Assembly: GCA_944380265.1 (NCBI GenBank)
Contig: CALWGY010000001.1
Coordinates: 229,697 to 293,696, forward strand
Length of the DNA stretch: 64,000 nucleotides
Direction of reading: 5' to 3'
Origin: an uncultured Clostridia bacterium
Lineage (GTDB): Bacteria > Bacillota > Clostridia > Christensenellales > UBA1242
A program made the position numbers and the translations under genes. Positions 1,266-60,394 of the stretch are shown here, piece after piece. The notes under the pieces were generated by a model that was not told the origin of the DNA, searched no databases, and saw only the letters and a list, made by a program, of their open reading frames with translations. The first letter of the stretch is position 1. The number at the start of each line of letters is the position of its first letter.

Positions 1266-1478
1266 TGTGTTTTCCTATTTAACTAAGTTTTAACTTAAAA
1301 TTTTTTTTAAGAATTAATTTACAAAAATATATTTGCAAAAATATATCCATGAAAAAATATCTGTAAAATACGATTATAAAAACGCATCTATGAAAATACA
1401 TTTGCAAAAATATGAATGTAAAATTTATCTGAAAAAATTCATATACAAAATTTTTTTATAAATTTTTAATGTTTTAAA

Positions 1479-2531
1479 TTATTCTTGTTCATCTTCTTTG
1501 CTAACAAACATATCAATGTATTTTTGTCGGCTTTCGCTGATTTTTTTGTTTAAGTGTTTGTATGCATTTGGAAGTGCAATTCTGCCCCTAGGGGTTCGTG
1601 CAATAAAACCAAGTTGCAACAAATATGGCTCGTAAACATCTTCAATTGTGTTGGATTCTTCGCCTGTGGCTGCACTTAATGTGTCTAACCCAACAGGACC
1701 GCCGTGGAATTTGTCTATTATGGTTAATAGCAATTTTCTGTCGGTGTAATCTAGCCCAAGTTCATCAACTTCCAACATTTCAAGTGCTTCCTTGCAAAGT
1801 TGCAATGTTATTATGCCTTCGCCTTTAATTTCGGCGTAGTCTCTAACACGTTTTAAAAAGCGGTTTGCAATACGTGGTGTTCCCCTGCTTCTAAGAGCAA
1901 GTTCTAAACACGCTTCATCATCAATTTTAATGTTTAAAATTTTTGCTGAACGTTTTATGATTTTGCTTAGTTCTTCCTTGTTGTAAAGTTCCAAACGGCA
2001 AACAACCCCAAACCTGTCACGAAGTGGGCCTGTTAACATTCCAGCCTTGGTTGTTGCACCAATTAATGTGAAAGGTTGAAGTTTTAAACGCATTGTTCTG
2101 GCACTTGGACCTTTTCCTAAAATGAAGTCTAGTGCATAATCTTCCATGGCAGGATAAAGAACTTCTTCAACTGCTCGGCTTAAACGATGAATTTCATCAA
2201 TAAACAACACGTCGTTTTTGTTAAGGTTTGTTAAAATGCTTGCTAAATCAGCAACTTTTTCAATGGCAGGGCCACTTGTTATTTTCAAACTTGAACCAAG
2301 TTCGTTTGCAATTATGTGGCTTAAAGTGGTTTTTCCAAGCCCTGGTGGACCATACAAAAGAACATGGTCTAGTGCTTCGCCACGTTTTTTTGCTGCTTTA
2401 ATGTAAATGTTTAAACTGTTTTTTATTTTATCTTGCCCAACATATTCTTCCATTGTGGTGGGACGAAGTGTGTTTTCAACATCTTCATCTTCCATGTTTT
2501 TTGTGCTGGTTATAAATCTTTCGTCTTCCAT
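1479..2531 (-). CDS. ruvB: Holliday junction branch migration helicase RuvB
   Basis: 350-aa ORF with Walker [10 protein letters not shown], Walker B FIDEIHRL and sensor RTPRIANR. Lies directly downstream of ruvA. Confidence 0.95.
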
Positions 2532-5157: not shown

Positions 5158-5910
5158 TTATTTTATTTCGTACATAAGAATGCTTGCAGACACTGCTGCA
5201 TTTAAACTTTCAACATTGTTTTGCATTGGAATTGTTACGGTTATGTCGCTTAAATTTTGAAGTGTTTTTGAAACCCCATTTCCTTCATTTCCAATAATTA
5301 ACCCAAAAACACCATTTATGTTTGCTTGGTTTGGGTTAACACCAGAAAGGTTTGCAGAAACTAATTGAAAGCCCTTTTCTGTTTTTAGTTTTGAAAGTTC
5401 TTCAACTGTTAAATTTGTGAAATTAACATTGAACACATACCCCATGCTGCTTCTAATAACTTTTGGCAAAAATGGAAAAACAGAATTAATTGAAACTATG
5501 TTTTTAAAGCCAAAAGTAAGTGCACTTCTTAAAATTGAACCTAAGTTTGATGGGTCTTGCAAATTATCAATTACCAAAAATTTTTCATCAAAATTAAAGT
5601 TTTGTTTTTTAGGAAGTTCGAATATGGCAAAAATGCCAGCATGCGTTACAGTTTCTGATAGTTTGTTGGCAACAGCTTCTGTTATTTTGTAAGTTTGATT
5701 TTCAAATTTACTTATCACATCAGAAAACTTTTCTAGTTTGCTTTCTTCAACAAAAAGCCTTGAAAGTGTGTGCCCACTGTTAATTAAATCATAAATGATT
5801 TTTTCGCCTTCAACAAAACAAAGGTTGTTTGAAATTATGTCCTTTTTTTGTTTTAAGGAATTTGTGAATTTTACAGTTGGATTTGATGGTGATGTAATTT
5901 CTTTAATCAT
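5158..5910 (-). CDS. TrmH/SpoU family RNA 2'-O-methyltransferase
   Basis: 250-aa ORF with SpoU motifs LQDPSNLGSILRSA, IIGNEGNGVS and ESLNAAVSASILMYE. It sits downstream of rplT, as ysgA does in Bacillus. Confidence 0.8.
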   Translation of the reverse strand: MIKEITSPSNPTVKFTNSLKQKKDIISNNLCFVEGEKIIYDLINSGHTLSRLFVEESKLEKFSDVISKFENQTYKITEAVANKLSETVTHAGIFAIFELPKKQNFNFDEKFLVIDNLQDPSNLGSILRSALTFGFKNIVSINSVFPFLPKVIRSSMGYVFNVNFTNLTVEELSKLKTEKGFQLVSANLSGVNPNQANINGVFGLIIGNEGNGVSKTLQNLSDITVTIPMQNNVESLNAAVSASILMYEIK

Positions 5911-21811: not shown

Positions 21812-23803
21812 TTAACCTTCATATTGCCATTCTGGTTTTTTAAAGAAATCTTGTTTTGGTTCTAAGAATGTTGGTTTATGATTTTTTGGGTCTTTTACAA
21901 AGAAATATATGTCTTTTTCAATGTTTTTCCAATCAAAAATGGATTTGTCTAGTTTCAAAAACTCAACAACATGTTCAACACTGTCTGGTGCAATTGGATG
22001 CAACAGTGTTAAAGCCACACGTGACATGTAAAGTGCATCAACCAAAATTTGTTTGCCCTTTTCGGTGTTCGCTAAGTCATTAGAATAACCTGTTAGGGTT
22101 TTATTTATGTTTCTAATTAAAGTGTCAAGTTCGTAGCAAACCATGTGGAATTTGTGTTCATAAACTGCTTTTTCATATTTTAAAATTGTGCATAAACATT
22201 CATTTTTAACATTTTCACTAACTTCGCCATATGGCATTATTCCATCATAATCTTTTTGCCATGTGTAGCAAAGAGTTCTTAAAACACGATTGAACACATT
22301 GGTTAATAAGTTATATTCCCTAACAACTGGGTCTTGTTCGTTTGGATTTGCATCTGGGTTTAGTGGTTTAGGCATAAAACTTGCACTATTATTTCCAACA
22401 TTCATTCCTAAAAAGTGGAAACGCAATTGTTCGGCGCTGTAATATTTTAAAAGATCGTTTGCCATTGGTGGTTTTACTGCTGAACTTGAACTTGCTTTTT
22501 TGTTTAGAAACAAAGTGTGTTTGTTTGCAACAATTTGAGGAATTGACAAATCTCCTTCTTTAACATTTATGGTTGGGTTTTCGCCTTGCATTGCAAACCA
22601 CATTGCTGTTTGTGCTGGACCATAGAAATATATGTTGTCTTCGCCAATAAATTGATAAACTTTTGCATCTTTTGAGCACCACCAATCTTTTAATGTGTTT
22701 TCTTGTTTGGTTTCCATTAAATAGGTTTTAGTGAATGATATTGGTGCCCACAAACTTTCTGGCCAACACCAGAAAGTTAGGTTTTTAAGTTCTTTTGTGT
22801 CGGGTGCTTTAACTCCCCACTCAATGTTTCCTGTTAATCTAAATGGAACAAGTGTTTTGCCAGTTCGGTAACGTATTCCATTTTTTGTTAAAATTTCACA
22901 AGCCAATTCGCGGTTTGCAAGTTTTTCAAATTTTACAGTGAATGATGGTTTGTTATCAACAATAACTTCATGTTTTGGCAAGTTTGTTATTTTGTTAAAT
23001 TCTTCCAAATATTCTTTTTTAATGTAAAGTTCTGGCTTTTTCAAAAACTCGTTAATTTCTTTTATAACATAACTTCTTGTTGGCGTTTTTTCACTTAAAT
23101 ATGTTGTCCATTCTTTTAACAAATCAATGTAGTTATCCAAATTAAAATACCAGTTGCCAATTTCTTTTAAAACTGGTTTTTTACCAGATAGCGTGCTAAT
23201 TGGGTCTATTAATTCTTCTGGCATGTATTGATGTCCCAAATCGCATTCATCAGCATAAGCGTGTTCGCTTGCACATCCTTCAAATGGGCATTTACCCATA
23301 ACTTGGCGACCATTTAAAAATGTTTGTTTTTCTTCATCATAAAATTGCAAAGTTTTTAAAGCACTTAAATTTTTTGTTTCCATTAATCTGTTAAAAACAT
23401 CTTCCGACATTTTTTGATGAACATCTTTTGATTTGCCTAATCCAGATGCTCCAAAATAGTTTAATGAAATGTTGTAACTACTTAAAATTTGTTTGTGGAT
23501 TTTATGAAATTTTGAAACATACTCTGTAATGCTTCCTTCAAACTCTTTTTTCTCAATTGCTTTTCTATATCCTTCCATTGCAGGGCTTCCATAGCAATCG
23601 GTGCCTGAAACATAAATAACATTTTTTTCTCCAATCCTGTCACGCAAAAAACGTGCAAAAAAATCGGAATGGATAAACAATGTTATGTGTCCGCAATGCA
23701 AAGATTTGTTGCCATATGGCATGCCTGATGTTACAATTGCCCTTGTTGGCCACACTGGTCTACGTTCTTTCATTCTGTTTAAAACTTCTGCTGTAATTCC
23801 CAT
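21812..23803 (-). CDS. metG: methionine--tRNA ligase
   Basis: 663-aa ORF with class I HIGH-type motif (SLHCGHI), a Cys-knuckle insertion (CPFEGC...) and a helical anticodon-binding domain. RBS is AAGGAGA. Confidence 0.93.
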   Translation of the reverse strand: MGITAEVLNRMKERRPVWPTRAIVTSGMPYGNKSLHCGHITLFIHSDFFARFLRDRIGEKNVIYVSGTDCYGSPAMEGYRKAIEKKEFEGSITEYVSKFHKIHKQILSSYNISLNYFGASGLGKSKDVHQKMSEDVFNRLMETKNLSALKTLQFYDEEKQTFLNGRQVMGKCPFEGCASEHAYADECDLGHQYMPEELIDPISTLSGKKPVLKEIGNWYFNLDNYIDLLKEWTTYLSEKTPTRSYVIKEINEFLKKPELYIKKEYLEEFNKITNLPKHEVIVDNKPSFTVKFEKLANRELACEILTKNGIRYRTGKTLVPFRLTGNIEWGVKAPDTKELKNLTFWCWPESLWAPISFTKTYLMETKQENTLKDWWCSKDAKVYQFIGEDNIYFYGPAQTAMWFAMQGENPTINVKEGDLSIPQIVANKHTLFLNKKASSSSAVKPPMANDLLKYYSAEQLRFHFLGMNVGNNSASFMPKPLNPDANPNEQDPVVREYNLLTNVFNRVLRTLCYTWQKDYDGIMPYGEVSENVKNECLCTILKYEKAVYEHKFHMVCYELDTLIRNINKTLTGYSNDLANTEKGKQILVDALYMSRVALTLLHPIAPDSVEHVVEFLKLDKSIFDWKNIEKDIYFFVKDPKNHKPTFLEPKQDFFKKPEWQYEG

Positions 23804-23828: not shown

Positions 23829-23977
23829 ATATTATCGGAAGTTTTGTCTGCAAGCGCCGTTAGGCATTTGCAAGCAAAACTAATGTTTTTTCAAACTGCA
23901 GTGGCACAAGTTATTGTGCAAGTTGCGTTAGTAAACTTTAAAATTTAACTTGTTTAAATTTTAACACCTCATAGTTT
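23829..23977. repeat. structured tandem-repeat unit 1 (149 nt)
   Basis: Starts ATATTATCGGAAGTT. H1 23841-23880 caps GCC-GTTA-GGC. P1 5' strand 23893-23903. H2 23904-23919 (GCACAA-GTTA-TTGTGC). H3 23920-23938. H4 23940-23962 (AAAATTTAA-CTTGT-TTAAATTTT). P1 3' strand 23965-23977. Confidence 0.85.
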
Positions 23978-24122
23978 ATATTATCGGAAGTTGTAGGCAA
24001 GCAGCCCGCAGGGATATTTGCATACAACTGATGGTTATTCAAACTGTGATGCCACAATTTATTGTGGAATTGCCATCGGCAATTTAAAATTTGCTTGTTC
24101 AAATTTTAATATCACGTAGTTT
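23978..24122. repeat. structured tandem-repeat unit 2 (145 nt)
   Basis: H1 23990-24028 (GTTGTAGGCAA / TTGCATACAAC around CCC-GCA-GGG). P1 24041-24051 with 24111-24122 (GTGAT/ATCAC). H2 24052-24067 (CCACAA-TTTA-TTGTGG). H3 24068-24084 (AATTGCC-ATC-GGCAATT). H4 24086-24107. Confidence 0.85.
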
Positions 24123-24271
24123 ATATTATCGGAAGTTGAAGGCAAGCAGCCCGTAAGGGACAAAAGCATACAACTGATGTTTATTCAAACTGCGGTGACA
24201 CAATTTATTGTGTGGTTTGCATAGGCAAACATTAAAATTTAACTTGCTTAAATTTTAACACCTCATAGTTT
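24123..24271. repeat. structured tandem-repeat unit 3 (149 nt)
   Basis: H1 24135-24174 (cap CCC-GTAA-GGG). P1 24187-24197 with 24259-24271 (GGTG/CACC, AAACT/AGTTT). H2 24198-24213 (ACACAA-TTTA-TTGTGT). H3 24215-24230 (GTTTGC-ATAG-GCAAAC). H4 24234-24256. Confidence 0.85.
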
Positions 24272-24348
24272 ATATTATCACACAAAAATGAAATTAGGCA
24301 ACTTTTATAAAACATAATTCAAAAAAATCCCCAAAAATGGTGGTATTT

Positions 24349-24490
24349 TAATTATCGGAAATTGTTGTCAAGCAGCCCGCAGGGACATTTGACAGCAACT
24401 GATGGTTATTCAAACTGCGGTGACACAAGTTATTGTGTGGTTTGCGTAAGCAAACATTAAAATTAAAATATAATTATAAATTTTACACAA
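24349..24490. repeat. structured tandem-repeat unit 4 (3' part degenerate)
   Basis: H1 24362-24398 (10 bp, TTGTTGTCAA/TTGACAGCAA, with one T.G pair). P1 5' strand 24412-24422. H2 24423-24438. H3 24440-24455 (GTTTGC-GTAA-GCAAAC). H4 and the P1 3' strand are not recognisable. Confidence 0.75.
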
Positions 24491-24541
24491 CATATTTTTA
24501 TATCAGGTTTTAAAATTAAACCAATTTTTTTATGGTGGAAA

Positions 24542-24739
24542 ATGTATTTTAATTATCATGCAAAAGCAAAAAACTTAATTAAAAATGGGAAATTAATTGA
24601 TTACAAAATTGTTGAAAAATATAACAACATTTCGCCTGCTTTGCTTCTAATTTTTGATGAATTAATTATGCCAATAAGACAACATAGGTGGCAGGAATAT
24701 TTTGATTTGATTGAACAAATGAATGCTGATGAAAAATAA
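24542..24739 (+). CDS. small hypothetical protein (65 aa)
   Basis: ORF MYFNYHAKAKNLIKNGKLIDYKIVEKYNNISPALLLIFDELIMPIRQHRWQEYFDLIEQ has a globular-looking, non-low-complexity composition. It ends 57 nt before a plus-strand terminator. The SD is weak (GGTGGA only 2-3 nt from the ATG). Confidence 0.45.
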   Translation: MYFNYHAKAKNLIKNGKLIDYKIVEKYNNISPALLLIFDELIMPIRQHRWQEYFDLIEQMNADEK

Positions 24740-24796: not shown

Positions 24797-24830
24797 AAAA
24801 AACAAGAATGTGGTTAATTCTTGTTTTTTA
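24797..24830 (+). terminator. rho-independent terminator after the small plus-strand ORF
   Basis: Hairpin AACAAGAAT(24801-24809)/ATTCTTGTT(24817-24825) followed by TTTT. It overlaps the stop codon of the convergent gene 24814..25458. Confidence 0.5.
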
Positions 24831-25458
24831 CAATTTTACTAAATGTGTTGTTTGTTAGCATTTCCTTTTTTTGTTTTAGTTCTGTTTCAAATTCCTTCAA
24901 GTAATTTTTTACTGCACTTTCTGTGTCATATTTTTCTTTGTCACCAAACAAACTTGTGTTTTTTGCACGTTCCCATTCACACTTGCAATATATGGTTGAA
25001 TATGTTTGCAAATATTCAATTCCGGTTTTTAATGTTTCAAAAATTTTTTCTTTTTCTTTTTTTGTTATGGTTTGAACATTTAAAATATAATTGAACAGCA
25101 AATCGTTTAATGCATTAAGCGTTTCACGCATTTCAATTTCGGCTGTGCCCTTATAGTTTATCGCATAAAAAATTTGTGATTTGTTGTATTCAAACTTTTT
25201 AAATTCTTCATTCAAATTTGCATTGGGTGTCATAAAAGAATAAATACTTTCAAAACAGTTGCTTAAACTTTGTTTTAAGTTTTGCATGGTTATTACCCTA
25301 TTGGAAGTTATTAAGTCAGTGTAACGCTTTTTCTTGTTTGTTGATGCTGTTACAATGATGTTTACAATAACACCGCCCAAAGATAAAATTCCAACAATAA
25401 ATGTTGCTAAGTTAAATTCGTTTGATAATGCCACACTAAGCAAATTAGATATGCTCAT
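24814..25458 (-). CDS. hypothetical membrane-anchored protein
   Basis: 214-aa ORF with one N-terminal TM helix (FIVGILSLGGVIVNIIVTA). The rest is helical and charged. I recognise no family. Confidence 0.6.
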   Translation of the reverse strand: MSISNLLSVALSNEFNLATFIVGILSLGGVIVNIIVTASTNKKKRYTDLITSNRVITMQNLKQSLSNCFESIYSFMTPNANLNEEFKKFEYNKSQIFYAINYKGTAEIEMRETLNALNDLLFNYILNVQTITKKEKEKIFETLKTGIEYLQTYSTIYCKCEWERAKNTSLFGDKEKYDTESAVKNYLKEFETELKQKKEMLTNNTFSKIVKNKN

Positions 25459-25689: not shown

Positions 25690-25971
25690 ATGGCAAGTAA
25701 CAAAACTACTGCAAAATCTACTAACAGCACAAAAGCTTCTAGTTCAAGAGCTAAAACCAGTGCTAGAACAAGAGCAAAAAGTTCAACTGAAAGTTCTAAT
25801 TCAACAACATCAAACAGAACTTCCAATAAAACTTCTTCTTCTCGTGCCACATCAAAAATGTCTGGTATGGGAACAAGTGCAAAAAGCACAAACTCTGCAT
25901 CTCGCTTAGGTAGATCATGTTCAAAAACCACAGGCAAAACTAATGCTAAATCAAATAATAAAAAAGCATAG
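25690..25971 (+). CDS. small, extremely basic Ser/Thr/Lys/Asn-rich protein (93 aa)
   Basis: ATG is 9 nt after a strong SD (GGGAGGTGA, 25675-25683). A clean terminator follows immediately. The sequence is low-complexity and lacks hydrophobic segments. Confidence 0.6.
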   Translation: MASNKTTAKSTNSTKASSSRAKTSARTRAKSSTESSNSTTSNRTSNKTSSSRATSKMSGMGTSAKSTNSASRLGRSCSKTTGKTNAKSNNKKA

Positions 25972-26096: not shown

Positions 26097-26183
26097 TGGT
26101 GCCGAAGACCGGACTTGAACCGGTACGATGTTGCCACCGCAGGATTTTAAGTCCTGTGCGTCTGCCTATTCCGCCACTTCGGC
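26097..26183 (-). tRNA. tRNA-Leu (anticodon UAA), CCA encoded
   Basis: Minus strand reads GCCGAAG...CAGGA-CTTAAAA-TCCTG...long variable arm...GGTTCAAGTCC...CTTCGGCACCA. The cloverleaf was drawn by hand. Confidence 0.9.
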
Positions 26184-26191
26184 ATATAAAT

Positions 26192-26266
26192 TGGAGGCAC
26201 CGTCCAGATTCGAACTGGAGCATAAAGGTTTTGCAGACCTTGGCCTTACCGCTTGGCTACGGTGCC
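26192..26266 (-). tRNA. tRNA-Cys (anticodon GCA), CCA encoded
   Basis: Minus strand reads GGCACCG...AAGGT-CTGCAAA-ACCTT...AGTTCGAATCT...CGGTGCCTCCA. Confidence 0.9.
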
Positions 26267-26323
26267 ATTACTCTTTTAATCTTAACGAACCTAAATCGGC
26301 TTTTCCTTTTGTTAAAAATAAAA

Positions 26324-26398
26324 TGGAGCGGAGGACGGGATTTGAACCCGCGACATTCGCCTTGGCAAGGCGACGCTCTACCGCTGAGCCACCCCCGC
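26324..26398 (-). tRNA. tRNA-Gly (anticodon GCC), CCA encoded
   Basis: Minus strand reads GCGGGGG...TCGCC-TTGCCAA-GGCGA...GGTTCAAATCC...CCTCCGCTCCA. Confidence 0.9.
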
Positions 26399-26422
26399 AT
26401 AATTTAATGCCATAAAAATAAA

Positions 26423-26498
26423 TGGTGGGAGTTATAGGGCTCGAACCTATGACCTCCTGCTTGTAAGGCAGATGCTCTCCCAACTGAGCTAAACTCCC
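26423..26498 (-). tRNA. tRNA-Val (anticodon UAC), CCA encoded
   Basis: Minus strand reads GGGAGTT TAGCTCAGTTGGGAGAGC ... CTGC-CTTACAA-GCAG ... GGTTCGAGCCC ... AACTCCCACCA. Confidence 0.9.
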
Positions 26499-42383: not shown

Positions 42384-42478
42384 TGATGGCTGGGGGTGTG
42401 CGATGGCACAACGCAGTTGTGCGTTTTGCGGTGGCAAAATTAAAATTTAACTTTCGTTAAATTTTAACATCGCACACC
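42384..42478. repeat. dispersed partial copy of the 23.8-kb structured repeat (junction module only)
   Basis: TGATGG tag 42384-42389. P1 GGTGTGCGATG (42395-42405) pairs perfectly with CATCGCACACC (42468-42478). P1 encloses H2 42406-42422 (GCACAAC-GCA-GTTGTGC), H3 42424-42439 (TTTTGC-GGTG-GCAAAA) and H4 42442-42465 (AAAATTTAA-CTTTCG-TTAAATTTT). Confidence 0.8.
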
Positions 42479-60050: not shown

Positions 60051-60394
60051 TTAGTTAGACATTAAATAAGCCGAGTTCTGTATTAAGTGGTCATCTATCT
60101 AGACACGGTATTGCTAGCGTGTTCAAGCGATGTATCGAAAAACCAAGCGAGCAACTTTTAAATGTTTTTCTTATCTTGCACCGAGTAGTGTTTACAGCAA
60201 ATGTTAGTTACCTAACAAGTTGGTGAGCTCTTACCTCGCCCTTTCACCCTTACTTTAAAAACTTAAAGCGGTTTATTTCTGTTGCACTTTACCTTAGGTC
60301 ACCCTAGCCAGACGTTATCTGGTACCCTTGCTCTGTGGTGCTCGGACTTTCCTCATAAGGTTACCCTCATGCGACCACATAAATATCTAACTAA
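60051..60394 (-). ncRNA. rnpB: RNase P RNA
   Basis: Minus strand contains the universal P4 elements GAGGAAAGTCCGAGC and ACAGAACTCGGCTTA. P1 forms between TTAGTTAGATATTTA (5') and TAAATGTCTAACTAA (3'). A consensus promoter ends 6 nt upstream and a terminator follows directly downstream. Confidence 0.9.

Follow-up and report, generated by a model that had tools for sequence, protein, structure and literature searches.

The bcr1 repeats of the Bacillus cereus group are ~155 bp in length, carry 5-bp direct repeats and a TTTAT motif, and adopt a cruciform-like fold that is kept by compensatory changes; mobility resembling site-specific recombination has been proposed for them, with an enzyme that is unknown (PMC3184786, PMC6542083, PMC6199540). 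The bcr1 repeats are transcribed, and an interpretation of their fold at the level of RNA has been given (PMC3184786). Pneumococcal BOX, enterobacterial REP/BIME/ERIC, and Neisseria Correia elements are also small interspersed intergenic repeats with stable predicted folds (PMC3184786; PMC3049150). Catalogs of repeats such as bcr1, BOX, ERIC, and REP go back decades, and how most of them are mobilized is still unknown. Here, we describe an array of repeat units upstream of the methionyl-tRNA synthetase gene metG in a 64,000-nt stretch of DNA from an uncultured Clostridia bacterium (the window), together with related copies elsewhere. We favor the reading, at a probability of roughly 55%, that these units are gene-less, non-autonomous structured repeat cassettes of a bcr1-like kind that are probably moved by Xer-like site-specific recombination.

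Two groups of recombination systems are relevant to this reading. Integrative mobile elements exploiting Xer (IMEXs) include CTXphi, TLCphi, VGJphi, and the gonococcal genetic island, and the pdif modules of Acinetobacter are grouped with them here. In the CTXphi attP(+) site, the folded plus-strand single-stranded DNA (ssDNA) rebuilds a duplex site from two imperfectly complementary segments. Integration of an IMEX regenerates sites, and the elements pile up in tandem. In the attC sites of integrons, structure is conserved over sequence, with paired boxes, bulged bases, and a variable terminal structure, and the integrase is a relative of Xer.

An nhmmer profile hidden Markov model built from the array copies and an Infernal covariance model (CM; the model used for unit scores is CM R1) recovered four full-length, head-to-tail units of ~146 nt each spanning 23829–24498 of the window, and Tandem Repeats Finder reported an array at 23878–24279 with a period of 146, 2.7 copies, and 80% matches. 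Column identity among the four copies was 82%. The tandem array of multi-hairpin units proposed in an earlier note on this DNA is confirmed. Each cassette consists of module A, in which hairpin H1 follows a nearly invariant tag, and module B, in which helix P1 closes a perfect four-way junction of hairpins H2, H3, and H4. The units and their parts are as follows.

23829–23977, plus strand: unit U1, 149 nt; nhmmer 133 bits, CM R1 126 bits (model positions 1–146); tag ATATTATCGGAAGTT, H1 with a C-GTTA-G cap, linker, and P1 around H2, H3, and H4
23978–24122, plus strand: unit U2, 145 nt; CM 155.8 bits, the top CM score of the whole data set
23983–23986 with 24032–24035: helix P0 of U2
23989–24029: hairpin H1 of U2, with a C-GCA-G triloop cap
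24036–24040: linker of U2
24041–24051 with 24110–24122: helix P1 of U2
24052–24067, 24068–24084, and 24085–24108: hairpins H2, H3, and H4 of U2, respectively
24123–24271, plus strand: unit U3, 149 nt; nhmmer 154 bits, CM 128 bits; H1 cap C-GTAA-G
24272–24279, plus strand: right-hand copy of the core and tag, ATATTATC, 8 nt; right boundary of the U1–U3 insertion
24349–24498, plus strand: unit U4; nhmmer 122 bits (model positions 3–145), CM 111.9 bits (model positions 1–146)
24499–24507: degenerate tag TATATCAGG, directly 3′ of U4
42393–42478, plus strand: solitary copy of module B; nhmmer 34 bits, CM 37.5 bits (model positions 67–143)

Two details of the earlier description change. A short tag copy does lie at 24272, where an aborted restart of the repeat had been proposed, and this 8-nt ATATTATC is the right boundary of an insertion. 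The fourth copy, said to decay after 24455, continues at full length to ~24498; its tag has diverged (TAATTATCGGAAATT), H1, H2, and H3 are intact, and H4 and the 3′ strand of P1 have decayed. Module B of U3 is nearly identical to that of U4, and a unit at a different locus (L065) has a module A almost identical to that of U1. The sole open reading frame (ORF) of at least 40 aa inside the array is one of 54 aa on the minus strand. The copy at 42393–42478, which gives the window two loci with units 18 kb apart, consists of the four-way junction only, with P1 as a perfect 11-bp pair (GGTGTGCGATG/CATCGCACACC) and a C-GCA-G loop on H2, and it lies upstream of a pcrA/uvrD-like gene (Pfam). A stretch of ~35 nt from the 5′ region of a 65-aa ORF beyond the array is present on both sides of U4, at 24322–24361 and 24521–24557 (CC..AA..ATGGTGG..TATTTTAATTATC).

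RNAfold placed U2 and U3 in the same architecture, with P0 and a GC-capped H1, a 5-nt linker, and P1 enclosing H2, H3, and H4. The minimum-free-energy structure of U1 has H1 and the P1 junction without P0, and that of U4 has P0, H1, H2, and H3 without the closing P1 or H4. Plus-strand z-scores of the four array units range from −2.5 to −4.2, with predicted folding energies of −39.8 kcal/mol for U1 (z = −3.3) and −42.3 kcal/mol for U2 (z = −3.8). RNAalifold on a plain MAFFT alignment gave only part of the fold, and a CM-based alignment was used instead: the U2 fold was mapped onto an alignment of 39 units, a CM was built, and its 85 matches, 80 of them distinct, were realigned. Among these 80 distinct copies, standard pairs occupied 86% of cells, compared to 31–43% when partners were slid by 1–3 columns, although cell counts overstate the number of independent events because the copies are related by descent. 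Double-sided compensatory changes occurred at 44 of the 52 base pairs. The covariation score was 0.318, compared to 0.04–0.06 for slid partners, and none of 500 shuffles reached the observed values. Covariation is present in each of H1, H2, H3, and H4. Conservation of P1 and part of H2 is inflated by ascertainment because these parts served as search anchors; the tag, H1, H3, and H4 were never anchors. The paired substitutions that the earlier note listed do occur in the four array copies and are strongly confirmed on the larger set, and its claim of selection on a folded nucleic acid is supported. A folded single strand constrains the copies, which do not reflect a recent simple duplication.

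Which strand folds, and as which nucleic acid, is suggested by stability and loop type. In 38 of 39 units, the plus strand folds more stably than its complement, with RNA and DNA parameters alike, in agreement with the strand favored earlier. Wobble pairs had also been cited in favor of RNA on that strand, and this argument is weak because G•T pairs are not clearly more frequent than A•C mismatches (173 versus 125, each dominated by a few columns). The H1 cap is C-GNA-G in 41 copies, with all four bases at N (C-GAA-G in 34, C-GTA-G in 4, C-GCA-G in 2, and C-GGA-G in 1), and C-GNNA-G (C-GTTA-G or C-GTAA-G) in 4. H3 loops are mostly GC-GTTA-GC, GC-GTTTA-GC, GGTA, GACA, or GAAA, with the general form C-G(N2–3)A-G. 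DNA mini-hairpins of the GCGNAGC and GCGNNAGC types are extraordinarily stable (PMC13037366). The H1 and H3 loops of the units are of this type, and most of the tetraloops violate the GNRA rule of RNA, which is mild evidence that ssDNA may be the folded species.

An alternative is that the unit is a plus-strand structured non-coding RNA gene or element, such as a multi-copy small RNA, a processing or stability element, or a guide for its own mobility, and that its spread as DNA is secondary. Strong covariation in all helices apart from the nearly invariant P0 and the more stable plus strand would suit an RNA, as would the promoter-like hexamers at the unit–unit junctions at 23953–23982 and 24098–24127 (TTCAAA or TTTAAA, 18 nt, TATATT) and the transcription and RNA-level fold of bcr1, the closest analog. 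We nevertheless consider this alternative distinctly unlikely. The units contain no intrinsic terminator, solitary units lack a conserved upstream −35 element, and orientation relative to neighboring genes is mixed. GNA triloops and GTTA, GGTA, and GACA tetraloops suit DNA mini-hairpins and not the GNRA rule, and G•U pairs are not clearly enriched over A•C. Moreover, no Rfam 15 family matched the window array at gathering thresholds, and at E-values up to 10 the array gave only chance-level matches of 13–18 bits, which upholds the earlier statement that the fold is no known riboswitch, T-box, or named non-coding RNA.

Copies of the unit were sought in related genomes and in metagenomes. An exact-pattern scan of one genome per species found 8 loci in 7 metagenome-assembled genomes (MAGs) of uncultured Clostridia, several at contig ends, and a metagenome scan anchored only on the two P1 strands found 68 loci, ~43 of which carry true copies, and yielded 39 distinct full-length units. 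The 85 Infernal matches came from 83 sources and represent ~33 distinct genomic sites, all intergenic. Dozens of intergenic copies in related Clostridia MAGs and metagenomes thus answer the earlier proposal that the genome and its relatives be searched. Tandem pairs occur at seven loci (L007, L008, L009, L029, L033, L041, and L059), and contigs frequently end within or beside units. The neighboring genes are unrelated to one another and include rplL, proB, obg, hslU, mreB-like, pcrA-like, and other genes in every orientation; at L008, for example, a unit lies 3′ of rplL and ahead of proB. All four classes of orientation relative to the two neighboring genes are represented, with 14, 9, 7, and 3 cases. 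At 10 of 33 sites, the left end of the unit lies 5–56 nt from the start of a gene that reads away from it. Phage records (n = 50,697) and plasmid records (n = 72,556) gave no blastn match to the unit, and a phage or plasmid origin was rejected on this basis; three pattern matches in IMG/VR were due to chance, with no unit present. The family occurs in a group of uncultured, low-GC gut Clostridia, in which it is spread over the chromosome.

That the unit is a mobile dispersed repeat is very probable. Identical 145-nt units with unrelated flanks occur at three loci of one metagenome (L014, L061, and L047), and L065 of the same metagenome combines a U1-type module A with an L047-type module B. 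At one orthologous site, L024 and L059 differ by exactly one unit. The metG locus of the window provides a further comparison of occupied and empty sites, in which the following features take part.

21812–23803, minus strand: metG, methionyl-tRNA synthetase, 663 aa; Pfam tRNA-synt_1g, E = 1.6e-62
24301–24274, minus strand: ancestral metG promoter from a promoter scan, with −35 TTGCCT, a 16-nt spacer, and extended −10 TGTGATAAT
24542–24739, plus strand: 65-aa ORF, whose first 16 nt (ATGTATTTTAATTATC) hold a tag-like target

The left end of U1 lies 25 nt from the metG ATG at 23803. Orthologs of metG in sister species have no upstream unit (L093, 86% identity; L090–L092, 82%), and removal of exactly 443 nt from the window (23829–24271, U1–U3) makes it colinear with the sister species: the window then reads GTTGCCTAATTTCATTTTTGTGTGATAATAT^TATATGTAATTACAAGGAG...ATG, compared to GTTGATTTAATTTTGTCTTGTGTGATATTATAATAAAGTAATTTAAGGAGG...ATG in L090. 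L093 also has, in the position of the 65-aa ORF, a 62-aa ORF that starts with ATGTATTTTAATTATC, a likeness of position and start only. The window promoter aligns with TTGATT...TGTGATATT in L090 and TTGCTG...TGTGTTATT in L093. Because the 443-nt deletion restores colinearity with the sister species and the promoter is intact, U1–U3 were inserted just after the metG −10 box, and the array now splits the intact ancestral promoter from the metG ribosome-binding site. The unit is thus an insertion-polymorphic, multi-copy, dispersed cassette, with U1–U3 placed precisely between the −10 box and the ribosome-binding site of metG. Transcription of metG now starts either at the old promoter, passing through ~470 nt of antisense units, or at a hybrid promoter at the edge of U1, for which TTGCAG, 16 nt, TATTAT is a candidate.

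These empty sites also bear on the idea, raised in the earlier note, that the array is a dedicated cis-regulatory leader or promoter of metG or of the 65-aa ORF. The array does lie next to the metG start codon, and because the ancestral promoter is now upstream of the array, the 5′ untranslated region of metG probably includes the antisense units. The sister species L090–L093 have no array upstream of metG, however, the unit is found beside rplL, proB, obg, hslU, and mreB-like and pcrA-like genes in all orientations, and no T-box or riboswitch matched in Rfam. The empty orthologous sites refute a dedicated metG element and rule out a T-box or riboswitch leader, so that this explanation is hardly credible.

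Identical MetG proteins are encoded in 22 contigs of the same strain. Among the ten contigs shown, eight start 50–300 nt upstream of metG; seven of these starts fall inside U1, and that of L081 falls in the next unit. Because same-MetG contigs start inside units, it follows that the repeat breaks assemblies. In two same-strain contigs that cross the array, U2 is absent and the spacer between metG and the 65-aa ORF is 594 versus 739 nt, a copy-number difference among short-read assemblies that may be a collapse artifact. U2 is absent from the same-strain contigs L080, L081, and L086. In another such contig (L087:1–77), module A is of the U1 type and continues into a linker and P1 start of the U2 type, which is either a U1/U2 hybrid formed by recombination at the level of units or an assembly chimera. 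Because units of this family break short-read assemblies of gut Clostridia MAGs and land between promoters and genes, they matter for MAG annotation and for the reading of promoters in this lineage.

We compared 35 left and 43 right array boundaries to define the ends of the cassette. Conservation in the flanks is confined to positions −3 to −1 (TTT) and 0 to +4 (ATATT): TTT is present in 21–29 of 35 left flanks, and the right-flank counts are A38 T38 A36 T30 T39 among 43 sites. Both junctions therefore read TTTATATT, an 8-bp core, and ATATT or TTTATATT is found at both junctions of the unit, as direct repeats are in bcr1. The tag is nearly invariant across units even though it did not anchor any search; a second tag variant (L044 and L048) retains ACTTCC, and ACTCC occurs in a ~80-nt module C described below. 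The ends of A+B units are not inverted repeats of each other (5′ ATATTATCGGAAG, 3′ CATCACATAGTTT).

Such a dispersed, intergenic, multi-copy repeat might instead be a classical MITE, a miniature transposable element with inverted repeats, moved by a DDE transposase encoded elsewhere, with TTT-ATATT as the target and ATATT as a 5-bp duplication. The fold would then be a by-product of inverted repeats or the result of later selection at the RNA level for mRNA stabilization or processing, a role that has been suggested for BOX, ERIC, and Correia elements. The ATATT direct repeat does flank the units, the variant ATAAT borders one unit (L067:5550) at either end, and copies that consist of module B alone carry perfect terminal inverted repeats of 11–13 bp (TCAAACTGTGATG). 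The full A+B units lack terminal inverted repeats, however, and the supposed duplication is the same sequence at essentially every site, whereas a target-site duplication should vary; TTT is conserved on the other side as well. Four internal hairpins that covary independently are not needed for the binding of ends by a transposase. No related transposase gene turned up in ~750 kb of related loci, and no insertion sequence (IS) partner was found near the units. We rejected assignment to the MITE class on the form of the ends, the missing partner, and the near-constant flanking repeat, and a MITE is, in our judgment, an unlikely explanation. The comparison with MITEs and IS elements proposed in the earlier note is thus borne out in that the unit behaves as a mobile repeat, and no described family was found to match it.

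Transposition of ssDNA offers another route, in which the unit derives from an IS200/IS605-type or IS91/Helitron-type element, an HUH enzyme nicks at ...AGTTT^ATATTA..., and arrays arise by rolling-circle read-through or by repeated insertion 3′ of the same short target. Hairpin loops of an ssDNA type, full units without terminal inverted repeats, and head-to-tail arrays would all be expected of such an element. The junction also resembles what we take to be the phiX174/pC194-type rolling-circle nick site, CTTG^ATATTA, a likeness that was considered and is not supported. Against this route, both flanks are conserved (TTT and ATATT), whereas IS200/IS605 elements constrain the left flank only; the hairpins at the left and right ends are unlike each other; orientation relative to neighboring genes shows no clear bias (14 versus 9); and no Y1 or Y2 HUH gene was found near the units or in the window. 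For the same reasons (different end hairpins, a constrained right flank, and no Y1 gene near units), assignment to IS200/IS605-derived PATE or REP/RAYT elements was rejected. We regard an HUH-type origin as very unlikely.

A different lead comes from the junctions. On the minus strand, the unit–unit junction reads ACTTCCGATAA-TATAAA-CTATGTGATGT and matches Firmicute dif, the site at which the chromosome-resolving recombinase of the cell acts, in the XerC arm and the central region. The dif sites of B. subtilis, S. aureus, and Symbiobacterium are ACTTCCTAGAATATATATTATGTAAACT, ACTTCCTATAATATATATTATGTAAACT, and ACGTCCGATAATATATGTTATGTCAAGG, respectively (PMC3025954). Mismatch scans against the first two located the following sites in the array.

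24109–24136, minus strand: dif-like 28-mer at the U2/U3 junction, ACTTCCGATAA-TATAAA-CTACGTGATAT
23964–23991: dif-like site of the same kind at the U1/U2 junction

Counted by hand, the canonical junction 28-mer (ACTTCCGATAATATAAACTATGTGATGT) is identical to S. aureus dif at 22 of 28 positions, and its XerC arm plus central region at 15 of 17. We scanned 676 kb of related loci on both strands (1.35 Mb). The 17-mer comprising the XerC arm and central region occurred with no more than 2 mismatches 26 times at units and never elsewhere, and the full dif-like 28-mer occurred with no more than 7 mismatches 11 times at units and never elsewhere. The 8-bp shared core coincides with the predicted 6-bp central region of dif plus 2 nt. 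When units were folded as circular DNA, the tag paired with the A–B linker beside P1 in many of the units printed, and this pairing would let the plus strand rebuild a quasi-duplex across the junction.

We propose a mechanism in three parts, given in order of falling confidence. First, a unit that has been excised and its ends joined would recombine with a target that has the same core, in a conservative, site-specific manner, and exchange within the shared core is, from the boundary alignments, likely. Two cores would be regenerated by each insertion, which would account for the head-to-tail arrays. Second, the mobilizing recombinase may be Xer-like, a tentative proposal that falls somewhat short of even odds and is prompted by joined ends that resemble the dif XerC arm and central region, with the core coinciding with the central region. 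Third, the folded species may be plus-strand ssDNA, which we also hold only tentatively as the substrate. In an ssDNA circle, the tag and the A–B linker would pair, stack on P1, and form a quasi-duplex across the junction like that of CTXphi attP(+) or integron attC, and H1 and H2–H4 would serve as compact, stable caps with mini-hairpin loops.

A bolder version, which we consider rather unlikely, would make the units the smallest known integrative elements, 146-nt gene-less circles of rod-shaped ssDNA that are integrated by host Xer at any TTTATATT core. The circle junction would be rebuilt as a pseudo-dif site, H1 and the H2–H4 junction would be caps resistant to nucleases and to single-strand-binding protein, and host Xer or a close relative would integrate the circles at TTTATATT cores, often in the −10 box of a promoter. 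If this version were true, it would describe how arrays are built and promoters rewired, would extend the hijacking of Xer from phages and genomic islands to 146-nt parasites, and might also explain the movement of bcr1-type repeats in Bacilli. For any version, the exact boundaries, the shared 8-bp core, a tag that matches the dif XerC arm and central region, and dozens of compensatory pairs provide a clean handle on mechanism.

A number of observations weigh against Xer-like movement of a folded ssDNA cassette. In its XerD-arm half, the junction resembles dif no more than background does. Target sites lack conserved arms, unlike true dif or attB partners, and are many and dispersed instead of a single chromosomal dif. 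The perfect terminal inverted repeats of module-B-only copies are those of a classical MITE, and the 5-bp ATATT can equally be read as a target-site duplication made by a target-selective transposase. Neither a recombinase nor a transposase or other autonomous partner was found: Pfam scans of 51 large ORFs showed only housekeeping genes or ORFs without assignment in the window, with no transposase, integrase, or HUH gene, and an all-against-all BLAST comparison of the 224 ORFs that lie no more than 2.5 kb from units revealed no protein family that recurs beside them. A search for modules A and B separated by an ORF turned up only module C between them. In circular folds, the ATATT core was unpaired in none of 39 units, and a model in which it lies unpaired in a 5×5 internal loop was rejected because the folds pair the tag with the linker instead. 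No covariation support was found for P0 among the 80 copies because P0 is nearly invariant. Given that neither a clear preference for G•T nor a clear orientation bias relative to neighboring genes was seen, RNA and lagging-strand ssDNA are neither positively shown. The ~35-nt duplicates around U4 differ by a 6-nt indel and are far longer than the 8-bp core seen elsewhere, and this duplication is predicted by none of the insertion models considered. The descent shared by the copies and the possible collapse of assemblies, both noted above, belong on the same side of the balance.

Only two tyrosine recombinases were present among the Pfam-scanned neighbors, a phage-type enzyme in L018 and an XerC/D-like enzyme in L074. 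The latter places an XerC/D-like gene in the lineage and says nothing about these units. The phage-type tyrosine integrase (L018:1046–2398, minus strand; Phage_integrase, E = 1.4e-26) starts at a distance of 297 nt from where a solitary unit (L018:2695–2841) has its left end, a pairing that is a single case and does not recur elsewhere.

Module C has the form ATATTAAGGAGNGAGAG...long hairpin...ATATATAGTTT, with end motifs like those of the A+B unit in kind, and occurs by itself, between units, or as an insertion at the TTTAT in the A–B linker. Its copies are located as follows.

L008:1498–1578; L001:1–93, minus strand; and L031:12199–12274: module C, ~80 nt
L004:6592–6668; L056:5816–5895; and L008:5602–5680: module C inside units

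At L008, opposed units (1347–1723, plus strand, and 5518–5741, minus strand) bracket 3.8 kb with ORFs of 248, 402, and 303 aa. The 402-aa ORF resembles a C5 cytosine methyltransferase (PCQ motif), which suggests that this segment may be a restriction-modification or defense island between repeat arrays.

Other features of the window near the array were also recorded. A 214-aa ORF (24814–25458, minus strand) has a hydrophobic N-terminal stretch and no Pfam match. The interval between the 62-aa ORF and a 91-aa ORF in L093 is 128 nt, compared to 950 nt between the 65-aa and 93-aa ORFs of the window, and no counterpart of the 214-aa ORF was called in the L093 interval; this ORF therefore looks like a lineage-specific insertion beside the array. 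The 93-aa ORF (25690–25971, plus strand) is of low complexity and rich in Ser, Thr, Lys, and Ala, and its coding strand is uncertain, given a 106-aa ORF that overlaps it on the other strand. At a comparable spot upstream of metG, L090 and L093 have small ORFs of 79 and 91 aa, respectively, a comparison by position only. A cluster of four tRNA genes (26100–26498, minus strand) and a class A RNase P RNA (60051–60390, minus strand; 266.8 bits) are ordinary housekeeping RNAs. The minus strand carries nearly all genes of the window, whose GC skew stays negative over its whole length, as would fit a single replichore.

By published descriptions, the closest known kind of repeat is bcr1, which belongs to group A of the Bacillus cereus repeats (bcr1–bcr3). 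Both bcr1 and the units described here are ~150-bp non-coding, multi-copy intergenic repeats of a narrow Firmicute lineage, and neither keeps the same genomic distribution from one close relative to another. Terminal direct repeats of 5 bp and a TTTAT motif are common to the two, with the unit junction reading AGTTTATATTA, as are a cruciform-like fold with compensatory changes and a proposed recombination-like mobility with no known enzyme. The unit gave no blastn match among the 72,556 plasmids, a set in which bcr-bearing plasmids of B. cereus may be present. The units differ from bcr1 in their uncultured Clostridia host, in combining a long hairpin with a perfect four-way junction where bcr1 has two independent stem-loops, and in their prominent head-to-tail arrays and shuffling of A, B, and C modules. 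A dif-like junction is not reported for bcr1 in the literature that we checked.

Compared to IMEXs and pdif modules, the units are alike in that their joined ends are dif-like in the XerC arm and central region, exchange would map to the central region, and elements pile up in tandem, and folded plus-strand ssDNA could possibly rebuild a duplex site as in CTXphi. They differ in being 146 nt long and gene-less and in using dispersed pseudo-sites with an 8-bp core instead of a single dif, and the XerD-arm half of the junction is not significantly dif-like; the link to Xer is a proposal from sequence likeness. Identification as a true IMEX was rejected since the flanks at many dispersed targets share only TTT and ATATT, with no integration at a chromosomal dif. 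Like the attC cassettes of integrons, the units may have a folded single strand as substrate and show orientation-specific, core-to-core insertion and head-to-tail arrays. Unlike those cassettes, they contain no ORFs, have the core GTTTATA and not GTTRRRY, and form arrays at many sites instead of at one platform; an integron cassette was rejected on core and gene content. No integron integrase or attI platform turned up beside the units in Pfam scans of neighbors, in which an integron integrase was not specifically excluded.

The units share with BOX elements (A-Bn-C) a construction from repeated modular sub-units, and, as with BOX, REP/BIME/ERIC, and Correia elements in general, insertion near promoters and 3′ ends can affect neighboring genes. 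They have no sequence relationship to BOX, REP/BIME/ERIC, or Correia elements and differ from them in having full units without terminal inverted repeats, a fixed target core, and a four-way junction with extensive covariation. What is new in these units is the host lineage, the four-way-junction fold, the pronounced arrays and module shuffling, and a dif-like junction as a lead to mechanism.

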